Source: Escherichia coli (lineage in GTDB: Bacteria; Pseudomonadota; Gammaproteobacteria; Enterobacterales; Enterobacteriaceae). Taken from it: DNA of 64,000 nucleotides. Location of the stretch: assembly GCF_003790525.1 (NCBI RefSeq), contig NZ_CP033635.1; one strand, 5' to 3'. Below the pieces are notes generated by a model that was not told where the DNA came from, did not search any database, and saw nothing but the letters and a program-made list of their open reading frames with translations. This document shows, one piece after another, positions 11,679-63,428 of this stretch (its first letter is position 1; every line of letters begins with the position of its first letter). The position numbers and the translations under genes were made by a program.

Positions 11679-12482
11679 ATGAACGCATTATTAAGCAATC
11701 CCTTTAAAGAACGTTTACGCAAGGGCGAAGTGCAAATTGGTCTGTGGTTAAGCTCGACTACTTCTTATATGGCAGAAATTGCCGCCACCTCCGGTTATGA
11801 CTGGTTGCTGATTGACGGGGAGCACGCGCCAAACACCATTCAGGATCTTTATCACCAGCTACAGGCGGTAGCGCCCTATGCCAGCCAACCCGTGATCCGT
11901 CCGGTGGAAGCCAGTAAGTCGCTGATTAAACAAGTCCTGGATATTGGCGCGCAAACTCTACTGATCCCGATGGTCGATACTGCCGATCAGGCACGTCAGG
12001 TGGTGTCTGCCACGCGCTATCCTCCCTACGGTGAGCGTGGTGTTGGGGCCAGTGTGGCACGGGCTGCTCGCTGGGGACGCATTGAGAATTACATGGCGCA
12101 CGTCAACGATTCGCTTTGTCTGTTGGTGCAGGTGGAAAGTAAGACGGCACTGGATAACCTGGACGAAATCCTCGGCGTCGAAGGAATTGATGGCGTGTTT
12201 ATTGGACCTGCGGATCTTTCTGCCTCGTTGGGCTACCCGGATAACGCCGGGCACCCGGAAGTGCAGCGAATTATTGAAACCAGCATTCGGCGGATCCGTG
12301 CTGCGGGTAAAGCTGCTGGTTTTCTGGCTGTGGCTCCTGATATGGCGCAGCAATGCCTGGCGTGGGGAGCGAACTTTGTCGCTGTTGGCGTTGACACGAT
12401 GCTCTACAGCGATGCCCTGGATCAACGACTGGCGATGTTTAAATCAGGCAAAAATGGGCCACGCGTAAAAGGTAGTTATTGA
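11679..12482 (+). CDS. rhmA: RhmA, 2-keto-3-deoxy-L-rhamnonate aldolase (HpcH/HpaI family)
   Basis: Track ORF 11376-12482 is an over-extended frame. The real start is ATG 11679 ([24 protein letters not shown]…), giving 267 aa. Confidence 0.85.
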
Positions 12483-12488
12483 TATCAA

Positions 12489-12516
12489 AGGCCCATGGGG
12501 ATCGGCTGTGGGCCTG
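12489..12516. terminator. Hairpin between convergent rhmA and ypaA
   Basis: aggccca…tgggcct inverted repeat just after the rhmA stop. Confidence 0.45.
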
Positions 12517-12522
12517 TGTTAA

Positions 12523-12708
12523 TTAGTGGTTATTCGCTGCCAGATCGGCTTCGCTTAGCTGAGTGGCCGCGAGCACCTGGTCACGATCAATGCCCTGTTC
12601 CAGCATGCGCAAGGCAATTTTAATGGCTTGTTCATGCATGCCTTCTAATTTACCCTCCTGCCAGCCAATTTGGTGTCCTTCCTGCCGTAGCCGTTCAGCA
12701 ATAGTCAT
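12523..12708 (-). CDS. ypaA: YpaA, small Rpn C-terminal-domain protein (stand-alone copy of the rpnB 3-prime module)
   Basis: 61-aa ORF ([39 protein letters not shown]…) near-identical to the C-terminal region of the adjacent rpnB. About 190 bp of DNA is a direct repeat of the rpnB 3-prime end, including the AAGGAGAG Shine-Dalgarno. Confidence 0.8.
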   Translation of the reverse strand: MTIAERLRQEGHQIGWQEGKLEGMHEQAIKIALRMLEQGIDRDQVLAATQLSEADLAANNH

Positions 12709-12720
12709 TAATCTCTCCTT

Positions 12721-13680
12721 TTAATAACAGTTCGGAATATCAGCATCAGTGAGTTGGGTTGTCGCCAGCACAATCTCACGTTCAAAGCCCTGTTCCAGCA
12801 TGCGCAAGGCAATTTTAATGGCTTGTTCATGCATACCTTCTACTTTGCCTTTCTGCAAACCCTCCAACTTCCCCTCCTGCCAACCTTCAATCTTACCCTT
12901 CTGCCAGCCAATTTGATGCCCTTCCTGCCGCAGCCGTTCAGCAATAGTCATTAATCTCTCCTTTTGTAGTGGTGAACGTTCGGCAATCTCCTCAATAAAA
13001 CGGGTGAAACGGGAGGTATCGCCGCATTGCAGCAGATAATTAAACAGCGTTTGTAGCTGGCTGTCATTAGTGAAGCCTCTAACCAAAAGCGTGGTGATCC
13101 TGTCGACCATACCGATTAAATCGCGGTCGCGAATATGCTTTTGAATCAGTTCCAGCAGAGCTATACGCCGATGTTGCATGATCTCATCGTCAGGTACGAT
13201 GGTGATATCCACCAACGGAAAAGCTTCGGTGTACAACTGCCGGGCAAGTTGCGGATCGTCAAACTCATCCAGCCAGTTGAGTGAGTACGGGTAGGGCGAG
13301 GTTTCGCCATGATAAAACAGCAATGGTACCACCAGCGGGACTCTGTCATAGCCTTTGTCCAGGTGACGCTGCATGGCGGCAGTGGCATAGCGCATTAGCC
13401 GAAAAGCCATATTCTTTTCTGCAGAGCTTTGATGTTCAATCACGCAGTAGATATAACCGTCACCCTCGCTGGTTTCCACAGACCACAAAACATCCGAGTA
13501 GTAAGCGCGTAAACTTTTTTCAATAAAGCTGGTGGGTTCCAGGCGTAAGGTTTGCAGGTTGCAAAGCTTGCGCAGCGGCTCTGGTAGATGTATTTCCAGA
13601 AAATCTCGCGCCGTATCGGGCGAGAACATAAAGGTTTTAAATACCGCATCATGCGGGGAGGAGGTTGTTGATTCGGTCAT
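12721..13680 (-). CDS. rpnB: RpnB (YfaD), recombination-promoting nuclease, transposase_31 / PD-(D/E)XK family
   Basis: 319-aa ORF with conserved Rpn N-terminus ([18 protein letters not shown]…) and a C-terminal repeat region ([27 protein letters not shown]). Confidence 0.85.
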
Positions 13681-13872
13681 GGTTGTCCGTCACCTGATAT
13701 TTATGATGACGCGACATTACGGTTATCCCGGGCCTTTGACATCTGCCAGTTTCAGCCTTTGCGAGACGTTTTCAGAGGAATTTTCACTGCGTTGCAACGT
13801 ATACATTGGGCACGGAATCGTGTGCGCAAAAATGCCCGGTAACCACATGCTTACCGGGCATCAGAAGGGAGT

Positions 13873-17937
<4,065 letters not shown>

Positions 17938-56430: not shown

Positions 56431-59280
56431 TTGAAATACCTTGCTTCTTTTCGTACAACCCTGAAAGCCTCGCGCTACATGTTCAGAGCATTGGCGTTAG
56501 TGCTCTGGCTGTTGATTGCTTTTTCATCCGTTTTTTACATCGTTAATGCGTTACATCAGCGAGAATCGGAAATTCGTCAGGAATTTAATCTGAGTTCCGA
56601 TCAGGCTCAGCGCTTTATTCAACGCACCTCTGATGTGATGAAAGAGCTGAAGTACATCGCCGAAAATCGCTTATCGGCAGAAAACGGTGTGCTTTCCCCG
56701 CGTGGACGAGAAACGCAGACGGATGTGCCTGCGTTTGAACCGCTGTTTGCTGACTCTGATTGTTCCGCAATGAGTAACACCTGGCGAGGTTCTCTGGAGT
56801 CATTGGCGTGGTTTATGCGCTACTGGCGCGATAATTTTTCTGCGGCTTACGATCTCAACCGGGTATTTTTAATCGGCAGCGATAACCTCTGCATGGCCAA
56901 TTTCGGTCTGCGTGATATGCCAGTGGAACGCGATACCGCGCTAAAAGCTTTGCATGAACGCATTAATAAATATCGAAATGCACCACAAGATGATAGTGGC
57001 AGTAACCTCTACTGGATCAGCGAAGGTCCGCGCCCTGGCGTCGGGTATTTTTACGCGTTGACGCCAGTTTATCTGGCGAACCGGTTGCAGGCGCTTTTGG
57101 GTGTCGAGCAGACCATCCGGATGGAGAACTTTTTCTTGCCTGGTACGTTGCCGATGGGGGTTACCATTCTTGATGAAAATGGTCATACCCTGATTTCGCT
57201 TACCGGACCAGAAAGCAAAATTAAGGGCGATCCTCGCTGGATGCAGGAACGCTCCTGGTTTGGCTATACGGAAGGGTTCCGGGAGCTGGTGCTGAAGAAA
57301 AATCTGCCACCCTCATCGCTAAGCATCGTGTATTCGGTGCCGGTTGATAAGGTGCTGGAACGCATTCGCATGTTGATCCTTAACGCAATTTTGCTGAATG
57401 TGCTTGCCGGAGCTGCATTGTTTACTCTCGCGCGGATGTACGAGCGACGTATTTTCATTCCGGCGGAAAGCGACGCCCTGCGACTGGAAGAACATGAGCA
57501 GTTTAATCGCAAGATTGTCGCCTCCGCGCCAGTGGGTATCTGCATTTTGCGTACCGCTGATGGCGTCAATATTTTAAGTAACGAACTGGCGCATACCTAT
57601 CTCAATATGCTTACGCATGAGGATCGCCAACGGCTGACACAAATTATCTGTGGGCAGCAGGTCAATTTTGTTGATGTCCTGACCAGCAACAATACCAATC
57701 TGCAAATCAGCTTCGTCCATTCGCGCTATCGTAATGAAAACGTGGCCATTTGTGTGCTGGTGGATGTTTCTTCGCGCGTGAAGATGGAAGAGTCGTTGCA
57801 GGAGATGGCACAAGCAGCGGAACAGGCGAGTCAGTCAAAATCGATGTTCCTTGCCACCGTCAGTCATGAGCTGCGAACGCCGCTGTATGGCATTATCGGT
57901 AACCTGGATCTATTGCAAACCAAAGAGTTGCCGAAAGGCGTCGATCGTCTGGTGACGGCAATGAACAACTCTTCCAGCCTGTTGTTGAAAATTATCAGCG
58001 ATATTCTCGATTTCTCGAAGATTGAATCAGAACAGTTGAAGATCGAACCGCGTGAGTTTTCACCGCGTGAAGTGATGAACCACATCACCGCCAACTATTT
58101 ACCGCTGGTGGTACGCAAGCAGTTAGGCTTGTACTGCTTTATTGAACCGGATGTGCCAGTGGCCTTAAATGGCGACCCGATGCGTTTACAGCAGGTCATC
58201 TCCAACCTGTTGAGTAACGCCATAAAATTCACCGATACCGGCTGTATAGTTTTGCAAGTTCGCGCTGATGGCGATTATCTCTCTATCCGTGTTCGCGATA
58301 CCGGCGTGGGGATTCCGGCGAAAGAAGTCGTGCGCTTGTTTGATCCCTTCTTCCAGGTCGGAACGGGCGTACAGCGAAACTTCCAGGGGACCGGTCTGGG
58401 TCTGGCGATTTGTGAAAAACTGATCAGCATGATGGACGGCGACATCTCGGTAGATTCAGAACCGGGAATGGGCAGCCAGTTTACCGTGCGTATTCCGTTG
58501 TACGGCGCTCAGTACCCGCAGAAAAAAGGCGTGGAAGGGTTGAGTGGTAAACGCTGCTGGCTGGCGGTCCGCAATGCGTCGCTCTGTCAGTTCCTGGAAA
58601 CCAGTTTGCAGCGCAGCGGCATCGTCGTTACAACATACGAAGGGCAGGAACCGACTCCCGAAGATGTGTTAATTACTGACGAGGTAGTGAGTAAAAAATG
58701 GCAGGGTAGAGCGGTAGTGACCTTCTGTCGTCGCCATATTGGTATTCCGCTGGAGAAAGCGCCAGGGGAGTGGGTACACAGTGTGGCGGCCCCGCATGAG
58801 CTACCGGCATTGTTGGCGCGTATTTATTTGATCGAGATGGAGAGCGATGATCCTGCTAACGCTCTGCCGTCGACGGACAAAGCGGTCAGCGATAACGACG
58901 ATATGATGATTCTGGTCGTGGATGATCATCCGATTAACCGGCGTCTTCTGGCAGATCAGTTGGGATCGTTGGGCTATCAATGTAAAACCGCGAATGATGG
59001 CGTCGATGCGCTTAATGTACTTAGCAAGAATCATATTGATATCGTGCTTAGCGACGTCAACATGCCAAATATGGATGGTTACCGCTTGACGCAACGCATT
59101 CGTCAGTTGGGACTGACGTTGCCGGTAATCGGAGTAACTGCTAATGCGTTGGCTGAAGAGAAGCAGCGGTGTCTGGAGTCCGGTATGGACAGCTGCCTGT
59201 CGAAGCCGGTAACGCTGGATGTGATAAAACAGACGCTGACGGTATATGCCGAGAGGGTCAGGAAATCGCGGGAATCGTAG
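56431..59280 (+). CDS. rcsC: RcsC, hybrid sensor histidine kinase of the Rcs phosphorelay
   Basis: 949-aa ORF with HisKA (SHELRTP), HATPase and C-terminal receiver domain. Confidence 0.95.
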   Translation: MKYLASFRTTLKASRYMFRALALVLWLLIAFSSVFYIVNALHQRESEIRQEFNLSSDQAQRFIQRTSDVMKELKYIAENRLSAENGVLSPRGRETQTDVPAFEPLFADSDCSAMSNTWRGSLESLAWFMRYWRDNFSAAYDLNRVFLIGSDNLCMANFGLRDMPVERDTALKALHERINKYRNAPQDDSGSNLYWISEGPRPGVGYFYALTPVYLANRLQALLGVEQTIRMENFFLPGTLPMGVTILDENGHTLISLTGPESKIKGDPRWMQERSWFGYTEGFRELVLKKNLPPSSLSIVYSVPVDKVLERIRMLILNAILLNVLAGAALFTLARMYERRIFIPAESDALRLEEHEQFNRKIVASAPVGICILRTADGVNILSNELAHTYLNMLTHEDRQRLTQIICGQQVNFVDVLTSNNTNLQISFVHSRYRNENVAICVLVDVSSRVKMEESLQEMAQAAEQASQSKSMFLATVSHELRTPLYGIIGNLDLLQTKELPKGVDRLVTAMNNSSSLLLKIISDILDFSKIESEQLKIEPREFSPREVMNHITANYLPLVVRKQLGLYCFIEPDVPVALNGDPMRLQQVISNLLSNAIKFTDTGCIVLQVRADGDYLSIRVRDTGVGIPAKEVVRLFDPFFQVGTGVQRNFQGTGLGLAICEKLISMMDGDISVDSEPGMGSQFTVRIPLYGAQYPQKKGVEGLSGKRCWLAVRNASLCQFLETSLQRSGIVVTTYEGQEPTPEDVLITDEVVSKKWQGRAVVTFCRRHIGIPLEKAPGEWVHSVAAPHELPALLARIYLIEMESDDPANALPSTDKAVSDNDDMMILVVDDHPINRRLLADQLGSLGYQCKTANDGVDALNVLSKNHIDIVLSDVNMPNMDGYRLTQRIRQLGLTLPVIGVTANALAEEKQRCLESGMDSCLSKPVTLDVIKQTLTVYAERVRKSRES

Positions 59281-59365
59281 GACGGATAAGGCGTTTACGC
59301 CGCATCTGGCATTCAGTGCAAATGCCAGATAAGACACTAACGCGTCTTATCTGGCCTACAGGTGA
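59281..59365. repeat. REP elements between convergent rcsC and rcsB
   Basis: ggacggataaggcgtttacgccgcatctggca … gccagataagacac…gcgtcttatctggcctac REP motifs. Confidence 0.75.
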
Positions 59366-63016: not shown

Positions 63017-63109
63017 AAAAAAAACCGGATGCGAGGCATCCGGTTGAAATAGGGGTAAACAGACATTCAGAAATGAATGACGGTAATAAATAAAGTTAAT
63101 GATGATAGC
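63017..63109 (-). ncRNA. micF: MicF antisense sRNA (regulator of ompF)
   Basis: Minus strand reads gctatcatcattaactttatttattaccgtcattcatttctgaatgtctgtttacccctatttcaaccggatgcctcgcatccggtttttttt, which is the MicF sequence including its terminator hairpin and U-tract; divergent from ompC. Confidence 0.9.
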
Positions 63110-63428
63110 GGGAGATATTCTAGTTGCGAGTGAAGGTTTTGTTTTGACATTCAGTGCTGTCAAATACTTAAGAATAAGTTATTGATTTTAACCTTGAATT
63201 ATTATTGCTTGATGTTAGGTGCTTATTTCGCCATTCCGCAATAATCTTAAAAAGTTCCCTTGCATTTACATTTTGAAACATCTATAGCGATAAATGAAAC
63301 ATCTTAAAAGTTTTAGTATCATATTCGTGTTGGATTATTCTGCATTTTTGGGGAGAATGGACCTGCCGACTGATTAATGAGGGTTAATCAGTATGCAGTG
63401 GCATAAAAAAGCAAATAAAGGCATATAA

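Follow-up and report, generated by a model that had tools for sequence, protein, structure and literature searches.

The rpnE-ypaA locus

The window analysed here, a stretch of 64,000 nt of Escherichia coli DNA, harbors on its minus strand a gene of the Rpn family, rpnE, with a tandem repeat in its 3′ part, followed by the short gene ypaA, in which the same kind of repeat occurs with fewer units. The features of the locus are listed below; positions are counted from the first nucleotide of the window.

13873-15138, minus strand: glpC, neighbour of rpnE-ypaA
12721-13680, minus strand: rpnE (yfaD) coding sequence, 319 aa, full-length Rpn-family protein RpnE_L (from the ORF, NF007418, TIGR01784 and RefSeq orthologues)
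13054-13659, minus strand: Transposase_31/YhgA-like PD-(D/E)XK nuclease domain, aa 8-209 of RpnE_L (Pfam PF04754, E = 6.6e-88)
12958-12963, minus strand: Shine-Dalgarno sequence AAGGAG for the RpnE_S start, in codons K240-E241 (reading AAGGAG-AGATTA-ATG)
12721-12951, minus strand: RpnE_S, in-frame internal ORF of 76 aa starting at M244, ATG at 12949-12951 (from the sequence)
12826-12921, minus strand: rpnE repeat block, 8 units of 12 nt/4 aa, aa 254-285 (from Tandem Repeats Finder, translation and self-identity)
12715-12720, minus strand: Shine-Dalgarno sequence AAGGAG of ypaA, abutting the rpnE stop codon TAA (12721-12723)
12523-12708, minus strand: ypaA (rpnE_Ss), 61 aa, tandem duplicate of the RpnE_S module (from the ORF and module alignment)
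12631-12678, minus strand: ypaA repeat block, four units, 16 residues (from the unit count)
ending at 12482, plus strand: yfaU/rhmA, 2-keto-3-deoxy-L-rhamnonate aldolase gene, neighbour of rpnE-ypaA

The 319-aa product scores 706.6 bits against the NCBIfam equivalog NF007418 (cutoff 583) and 173 bits against the Rpn family model TIGR01784 (cutoff 52), and the RpnA model aligns with it collinearly (1-257 to 1-257). The residues needed for RpnA activity (D11, D63, E82 and Q84) are all found at the same positions, and R94 and D165 are likewise kept; with these residues and the PF04754 domain the protein belongs to the Rpn/YhgA-like nuclease family. In RefSeq the label rpnE is given to the orthologous long gene of K-12 MG1655 (WP_000140592.1) and of many other genomes. 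In MG1655 this gene is followed by the 61-aa ypaA product, and according to RefSeq the pair is flanked by yfaU and glpC. An earlier note on this DNA had named the gene rpnB. In the nomenclature of Kingston et al. 2017 RpnB is YfcI and RpnE is YfaD, and the RefSeq label, the synteny and the match to NF007418 together give rpnE (yfaD). Identity with rpnB (yfcI) is ruled out because RefSeq labels the locus rpnE and a tblastn search of the 64 kb turned up no further Rpn paralogue. The gene is the rpnE (yfaD) orthologue, lying between glpC and ypaA-yfaU.

A megablast search with positions 12480-13760 gave matches in 5,420 of 5,426 complete E. coli genomes, always on the chromosome. This segment of 1,281 nt is 100% identical to that of E. 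coli strain 165 (NZ_CP020509.1), and 71 of the 5,420 genomes reach an identity of 99% or more to the window across it. The product name for rpnE in RefSeq is 'ISNCY family transposase'. Despite its complete ORF, ypaA is called a pseudogene fragment 'missing N-terminus' by RefSeq in most genomes; it has its own Shine-Dalgarno sequence, and its product was detected in K-12. The 40-nt gap between the convergent genes yfaU and ypaA contains a GC-rich hairpin with a 10-bp stem (12489-12515, plus strand), which was scored as terminator-like and could serve both transcription units. A search with the PADLOC 2.0 models gave a single match that was weak and irrelevant ('putative invertase', E = 1.4e-5), so that Rpn is without representation in that library. 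Two matches at Rfam gathering level, both unrelated to the repeat, were obtained for the MicF sRNA (63017-63110, minus strand, 116.8 bits) and for naRNA4 (59280-59356, plus strand, 65.5 bits).

Sequence and period of the repeat

The repeat block of rpnE consists of eight in-frame units which on the coding strand read GGGCATCAAATT GGCTGGCAGAAG GGTAAGATTGAA GGTTGGCAGGAG GGGAAGTTGGAG GGTTTGCAGAAA GGCAAAGTAGAA GGTATGCATGAA and together encode 32 residues. Tandem Repeats Finder reports positions 12851-12906 as a repeat with a period of 24, 2.3 copies and 78% matches. In the repeat core (12835-12909) self-identity is 72.5% at a lag of 24 nt and 44% at a lag of 12 nt. The background at lag 24 across the 64 kb window has a mean of 27% with a standard deviation of 6.8%, and the value of the core is attained by no more than four windows of the 64 kb, all four of which overlap the rpnE repeat locus. 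Since this identity tops the entire 64 kb, the repeat is real and far beyond what chance would give. It is built from units of 12 nt (4 aa, G-x-x-E/K), and a more pronounced super-period of 24 nt results from the alternation of two unit types, G-[W/L]-Q-[E/K] and G-K-[I/L/V]-E.

The tandem repeat recognized in the earlier note is thus confirmed, and the two peptides quoted there occur exactly in the translations of the 319-aa ORF (12721-13680, minus strand) and of the 61-aa ypaA ORF (12523-12708, minus strand). It was also correctly seen that ypaA has fewer units than the long gene, with four against eight in the window. The period had been given as 18 bp, which has to be replaced by 12/24 nt, as self-identity of the core at lag 18 is 19% and falls below background. 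Of the interval 12780-12925 assigned to the repeat, the part 12826-12921 is repetitive, whereas 12780-12825 encodes 15 non-repetitive residues.

The internal reading frame RpnE_S, ypaA and the predicted structure

The repeat lies inside a gene within a gene: an AAGGAG motif is followed after a spacer of 6 nt by an in-frame ATG (12951), giving a small ORF that corresponds to the C-terminal part of RpnE. A Ribo-RET study found internal initiation in all five rpn genes of E. coli K-12 and described the internal product of rpnE as near-identical to YpaA. Both RpnE_S and YpaA (RpnE_Ss) were detected in K-12 by SPA tagging (Zhong et al. 2023, PNAS 120:e2307382120; PMC10400941). For the internal promoter reported in the literature, a scan for sigma-70 promoters in 12400-13900 found no site on either strand; this was counted neither way. 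The rpnE 3′ module (12739-12965) aligns to 12544-12722 with a gap of 48 nt in the repeat block, and the ypaA start region is identical to that of RpnE_S (AAGGAGAGATTAATG), from which it follows that ypaA duplicates the RpnE_S module in tandem, ribosome-binding site included.

The repeat units begin at residue 11 of RpnE_S. A PDB sequence search with RpnE_S gave 7TH0 as the relevant match (E = 0.15). This is the structure of RpnA_S, a dimer with the first helices packed together (Zhong et al. 2023). The top match of the search, a designed PPR protein, was rejected as spurious helical-repeat similarity. Residues 1-13 and 38-72 of RpnE_S align to residues 1-13 and 10-44 of RpnA_S, and the repeat block accordingly forms an insertion into the first helix of a three-helix domain. 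In a monomer AlphaFold2 model of moderate confidence, for which 29 variants were used, residues 3-53 of RpnE_S form one continuous helix, with a pLDDT of about 60 across the repeats and of 85-88 across the conserved domain. The predicted place of the repeat block is thus helix 1, the long one, of a small C-terminal domain with three helices.

Unit number among strains

Units were counted between RQE and QAIKIA in 26 fetched E. coli loci. For rpnE the number is 3, 4, 5, 6, 7, 8, 9 or 11, and for ypaA it is 3, 4, 5, 7 or 9. The window has 8 units in rpnE and 4 in ypaA, as compared to 3 and 4 in K-12 MG1655. Length differences among the fetched alleles are always multiples of 12 nt and in frame, and the two unit types go on alternating in alleles of different length. 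As a result of this variation RpnE ranges from 299 to 331 aa and RpnE_S from 56 to 88 aa. The earlier note had expected that unit number would vary among strains in both genes and would alter the nuclease C-terminus together with any small protein made from it, and had named an identical number in all strains as the contrary outcome; the 26 loci bear out the expectation on both counts. The small protein also occurs in a global protein collection, where its copies from E. coli, Shigella, E. marmotae and other Escherichia have 3-12 units.

Approximate frequencies were obtained from two systematic samples of 60 genomes each, taken in even steps down the ranking of the 5,420 matching complete genomes. 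Sample rows for which the sequence was not fetched were classed by their match span against fetched representatives. In the second sample, for which a short query was used, some pieces were joined to ypaA, which gave five ambiguous rows with spans that were not multiples of 12; four of these were fetched and classed directly, and the fifth (H67) was assigned through a span equal to that of H65.

rpnE allele: sample 1; sample 2
3 units: 34/60; 35/60
4 units: 1/60; 2/60
5 units: 5/60; 3/60
6 units: 1/60; 0/60
7 units: 1/60; 1/60
8 units: 10/60; 9/60
9 units: 2/60; 2/60
11 units: 5/60; 6/60
IS2-truncated: 1/60; 0/60
unclassified: 0/60; 2/60

Pooled over both samples, the K-12 state of 3 units accounts for about 57% of the genomes, the 8 units of the window for about 16% and 11 units for about 9%. 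In strain UTME-10 (NZ_CP157104.1, L020) an IS2 element lies in rpnE, and the C-terminal part, the repeat block and ypaA are gone. Within lineages the number is stable: in independent assemblies of K-12 derivatives (MG1655 twice, XL1-Blue, JW-5 and 'K-12') the count is 3 for rpnE and 4 for ypaA throughout, and all three O157:H7-type genomes in the second sample (H81-H83) have the same span.

Relation to known repeats

The repeat of rpnE and its variation between strains are already known (Zhong et al. 2023), and the window holds no new kind of feature. These authors described 'four amino acid repeats' that vary by strain in all E. coli RpnS proteins, including YpaA, and that start 8-20 residues after the internal methionine; they also observed that the downstream copy has been lost through deletion or fusion. 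The block found here shares with the published RpnS/RpnL repeats the family, the domain and the position (residue 11 of RpnE_S). It also shares their composition (a single hydrophobic residue alongside glycine or charged residues) and the variation within a species. There is no essential difference, and what is added are details, namely the 24-nt period, the allele spectrum and the junctions. With units in predicted helix 1 from residue 11 and a number that varies among E. coli, the block belongs to the Rpn four-amino-acid repeats.

Outside the Rpn family the closest functional analogy is the TAEL repeat in HsdS of EcoR124I/EcoR124II, which is also an in-frame 12-nt/4-aa repeat and forms part of a helical spacer in a defence protein, and the copy number of which changes the molecular specificity of HsdS (cited by Zhong et al. 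2023). The two families are unrelated. In HsdS the TAEL repeat sets the spacing of the DNA half-sites, whereas the rpnE repeat is proposed to set the pairing of toxin and antitoxin.

A second resemblance, unmentioned in Zhong et al. 2023, is to the GxxxG repeats of FliH/YscL (Trost & Moore 2009) and to the deca-GX3 of Yae1/Lto1. These are likewise long G-x-x-x repeats, rich in E/Q/K and predicted to be helical, and the copy number differs between homologues in all of them, in FliH between species and in rpnE between strains. Weak matches of FliH models (E = 1e-7, 31 bits, cutoff 293) and of Pfam Yae1_N (E = 0.31) coincide exactly with the repeat block 12826-12921 (aa 254-285). Homology to FliH was rejected, the score being far short of the cutoff and the match confined to the repeat block; judging by these profiles, the resemblance to FliH and Yae1_N reflects a shared G-x-x-x helical periodicity rather than homology.

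Changes in unit number

Several alleles are related by single exact indels of 12 or 24 nt that are bounded by direct repeats of 2-27 nt. Removal of one 24-nt segment from the 8-unit allele of the window gives exactly the 6-unit allele of strain M160133 (L004), with GG as the junction microhomology. Similarly, a 5-unit allele (GLQE GMHE) becomes the 4-unit allele ending in GLHE when 12 nt are taken out at a TGCA microhomology, an indel from which the chimeric unit GLHE arises. In ypaA, the 9-unit block of GN03590 (L007) and the 7-unit block of CCUG 73778 (L008) differ by a 24-nt indel inside an exact direct repeat of 27 nt; these two strains have no SNPs in 759 nt of rpnE and carry identical rpnE alleles. 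Such local indels may plausibly have arisen by slippage of mispaired strands or by unequal exchange at the direct repeats, with the proviso that a comparison of alleles would fix neither the direction (expansion or contraction) nor the rate of the changes. Adjacent 12-nt units are about 44% identical and some of the indel junctions have a microhomology of 2 nt only, which makes the block a poor substrate for slippage of the classical kind. How these 'dodecamer repeats' expand and contract was left for further study by Zhong et al. 2023, and a search of the literature after 2023 on the mechanism of repeat change found nothing relevant.

Other alleles point to exchange between the two genes. Strain B19695 (L013) has a fusion allele with 3 units and no ypaA, WCHEC4533 (L021) has 8 units in rpnE and 3 in ypaA, and the 5′ 759 nt of the two are identical; this pair, in which the step from 8 to 3 units in rpnE is accompanied by loss of ypaA and gain of a ypaA-type tail, fits a deletion between the two direct-repeat modules. 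The fusion allele of CFT073 (L015, 5 units) is 2 SNPs away from 11-unit alleles. Strain E2348/69 (L005) carries 7-unit blocks in both rpnE and ypaA which differ at 2 of 84 nt, as would fit gene conversion. In about 42% of the sampled genomes (25/60, first sample) there is no separate ypaA and rpnE ends in a ypaA-type tail (...QLSEADLAANNH); fusion alleles of this kind (L009, L012-L015) look like products of deletion between the two direct-repeat modules. In two of the fetched fusion strains, L009 and L014, the annotation gives yfaU next to it as a pseudogene truncated at the N-terminus. One could hold on these grounds that differences in unit number stem mainly from recombination, with ypaA and the rpnE 3′ module undergoing gene conversion or deletion and whole alleles being exchanged horizontally, and not from local slippage. 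We consider this possible but rather unlikely as the main source, since L007 differs from both L008 and L017 only in having 9 instead of 7 units in ypaA, with rpnE and flanks identical, which is a purely local change, and since the window and L004 differ by the exact 24-nt indel with the rest of the block identical. The attribution of the length changes to slipped strands in the earlier note is therefore upheld in part: exact 12/24-nt indels at direct repeats agree with it, but some of the variation appears to come from recombination or deletion involving the rpnE 3′ module and ypaA. To judge from the alleles, both routes operate, local repeat events as well as exchange between rpnE and ypaA.

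Three further explanations are much less probable. A tandem repeat inside a defence-type gene, in which closely related strains can differ, brings to mind a fast contingency (phase-variable) locus with high-frequency switching of repeat number within a clone, and classical contingency loci also possess a coding tandem repeat that changes by direct-repeat events. The rpnE units are, however, long (12/24 nt), imperfect and few, and all changes stay in frame, which modulates length and gives no on/off switching of expression. The number is also lineage-stable, being invariant in K-12 derivatives from independent laboratories and shared, as far as the span tells, by the three sampled O157:H7-type genomes. 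Because the units are imperfect and few, the count is stable within lineages and the changes are in frame, the variation is one on an evolutionary scale rather than a phase-variable switch; with differences in multiples of 12 nt and invariant K-12 derivatives, classification as a contingency locus was rejected, and we regard such rapid switching as very improbable. Zhong et al. 2023 raised the possibility that expansions are catalyzed by the Rpn nuclease itself or by a phage factor instead of arising as replication errors. The catalytic residues defined for RpnA are intact in RpnE of the window, but the indel junctions look like ordinary direct-repeat events and K-12 RpnE, over-expressed, was the one paralogue found inactive in the recombination assays of Kingston et al. 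2017, so that catalyzed expansion is improbable too, if marginally less so than rapid switching. The RpnE construct used in those assays would have yielded RpnE_S as well, and ypaA was present in the host. An artefact of assembly or annotation would be conceivable as repeats can collapse in short-read assemblies, yet the collection consists of complete genomes only, the block (36-132 nt) is shorter than a sequencing read, equal counts recur in independent assemblies of one lineage, and the length differences are exact multiples of 12 nt that keep the reading frame. For practical purposes this possibility can be neglected.

Functional interpretation

The rpnE block at 12826-12921 very probably represents the hypervariable four-amino-acid (dodecamer) repeat known from the C-terminal domain of Rpn proteins, with a unit number that changes by slippage or unequal exchange or by exchange with ypaA, and with a function as pairing helix that we infer from the paralogues. 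New unit numbers would arise from slipped-strand mispairing or unequal exchange between neighbouring units, as the alleles suggest, while an exchange of the rpnE 3′ module with ypaA, through recombination or gene conversion, or a deletion between the two could replace the whole block in one step.

For the paralogues a role of the small proteins in toxin neutralization has been established. Toxicity of the long protein and its neutralization by the small protein were demonstrated for RpnA, RpnB and RpnP2, with RpnA_S and RpnB_S blocking the toxic long proteins (Zhong et al. 2023). With RpnC, only a small protein with an equal number of repeats blocked the long protein; RpnC was the sole paralogue examined in this way, and one added KGIE unit was used for the pairing test (Zhong et al. 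2023). By analogy with RpnA, RpnB, RpnC and RpnP2, for which this was shown, the helix that contains the repeat would serve as dimerization interface, at which the small antitoxin attaches to the long nuclease toxin and blocks it, and in RpnE the unit number would set which small protein pairs with which long protein. RpnE may thus be a toxin neutralized by RpnE_S, the two being paired by unit number. As RpnE_L and RpnE_S are read from the same DNA, any change in unit number would alter both together.

The relation between RpnE_L and YpaA would be a different one. Among 21 fetched loci with both genes, the window included, the unit number of ypaA differs from that of rpnE in 20, the concordant case being E2348/69 with 7 and 7. 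If the rule found for RpnC holds, YpaA would therefore not be the cognate partner of the resident RpnE_L. A concordance of 1/21 is about what is expected by chance, and no sign of selection is claimed. It may be proposed that ypaA is a stored alternative cassette and that the locus, rather than being a simple slippage-prone repeat, is a two-cassette specificity-switching system under phage pressure, in which one recombination between the direct-repeat modules would swap the unit number of RpnE together with its C-terminal tail. We regard this cassette function as improbable, though worth naming.

Under the preferred reading, that of a repeat in a pairing helix of rpnE, the block forms part of the interface at which an intragenic antitoxin would restrain a toxic defence nuclease, and the unit number would act as a built-in dial for the toxin-antitoxin pairing, shifting both partners at once, an idea that likewise dates from the 2023 publication. 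To the published description we add the corrected gene name, period and coordinates of this locus and the spectrum of rpnE and ypaA alleles with approximate frequencies, sampled from 5,420 complete E. coli genomes. We also add junctions at the sequence level, according to which the count would change both locally, by events of 12/24 nt at direct repeats, and through exchange with ypaA. The junction evidence bears on the mechanism of count change, the point that was left open in 2023.

Other variants of the same small domain were also noted. One protein (P0113) has an in-frame tandem duplication of 11 aa, and in another (P0041) GHQIGWQE is duplicated; the RpnE_S/YpaA module as a whole seems prone to short tandem duplication. 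Four YpaA-like proteins, mostly from Escherichia marmotae (P0065, P0071, P0074 and P0081), have 8 units, are without the third helix region and end in a wholly different basic tail (...DRDLAARSHPAKRSRSGSE), which may represent a frameshifted or truncated variant.
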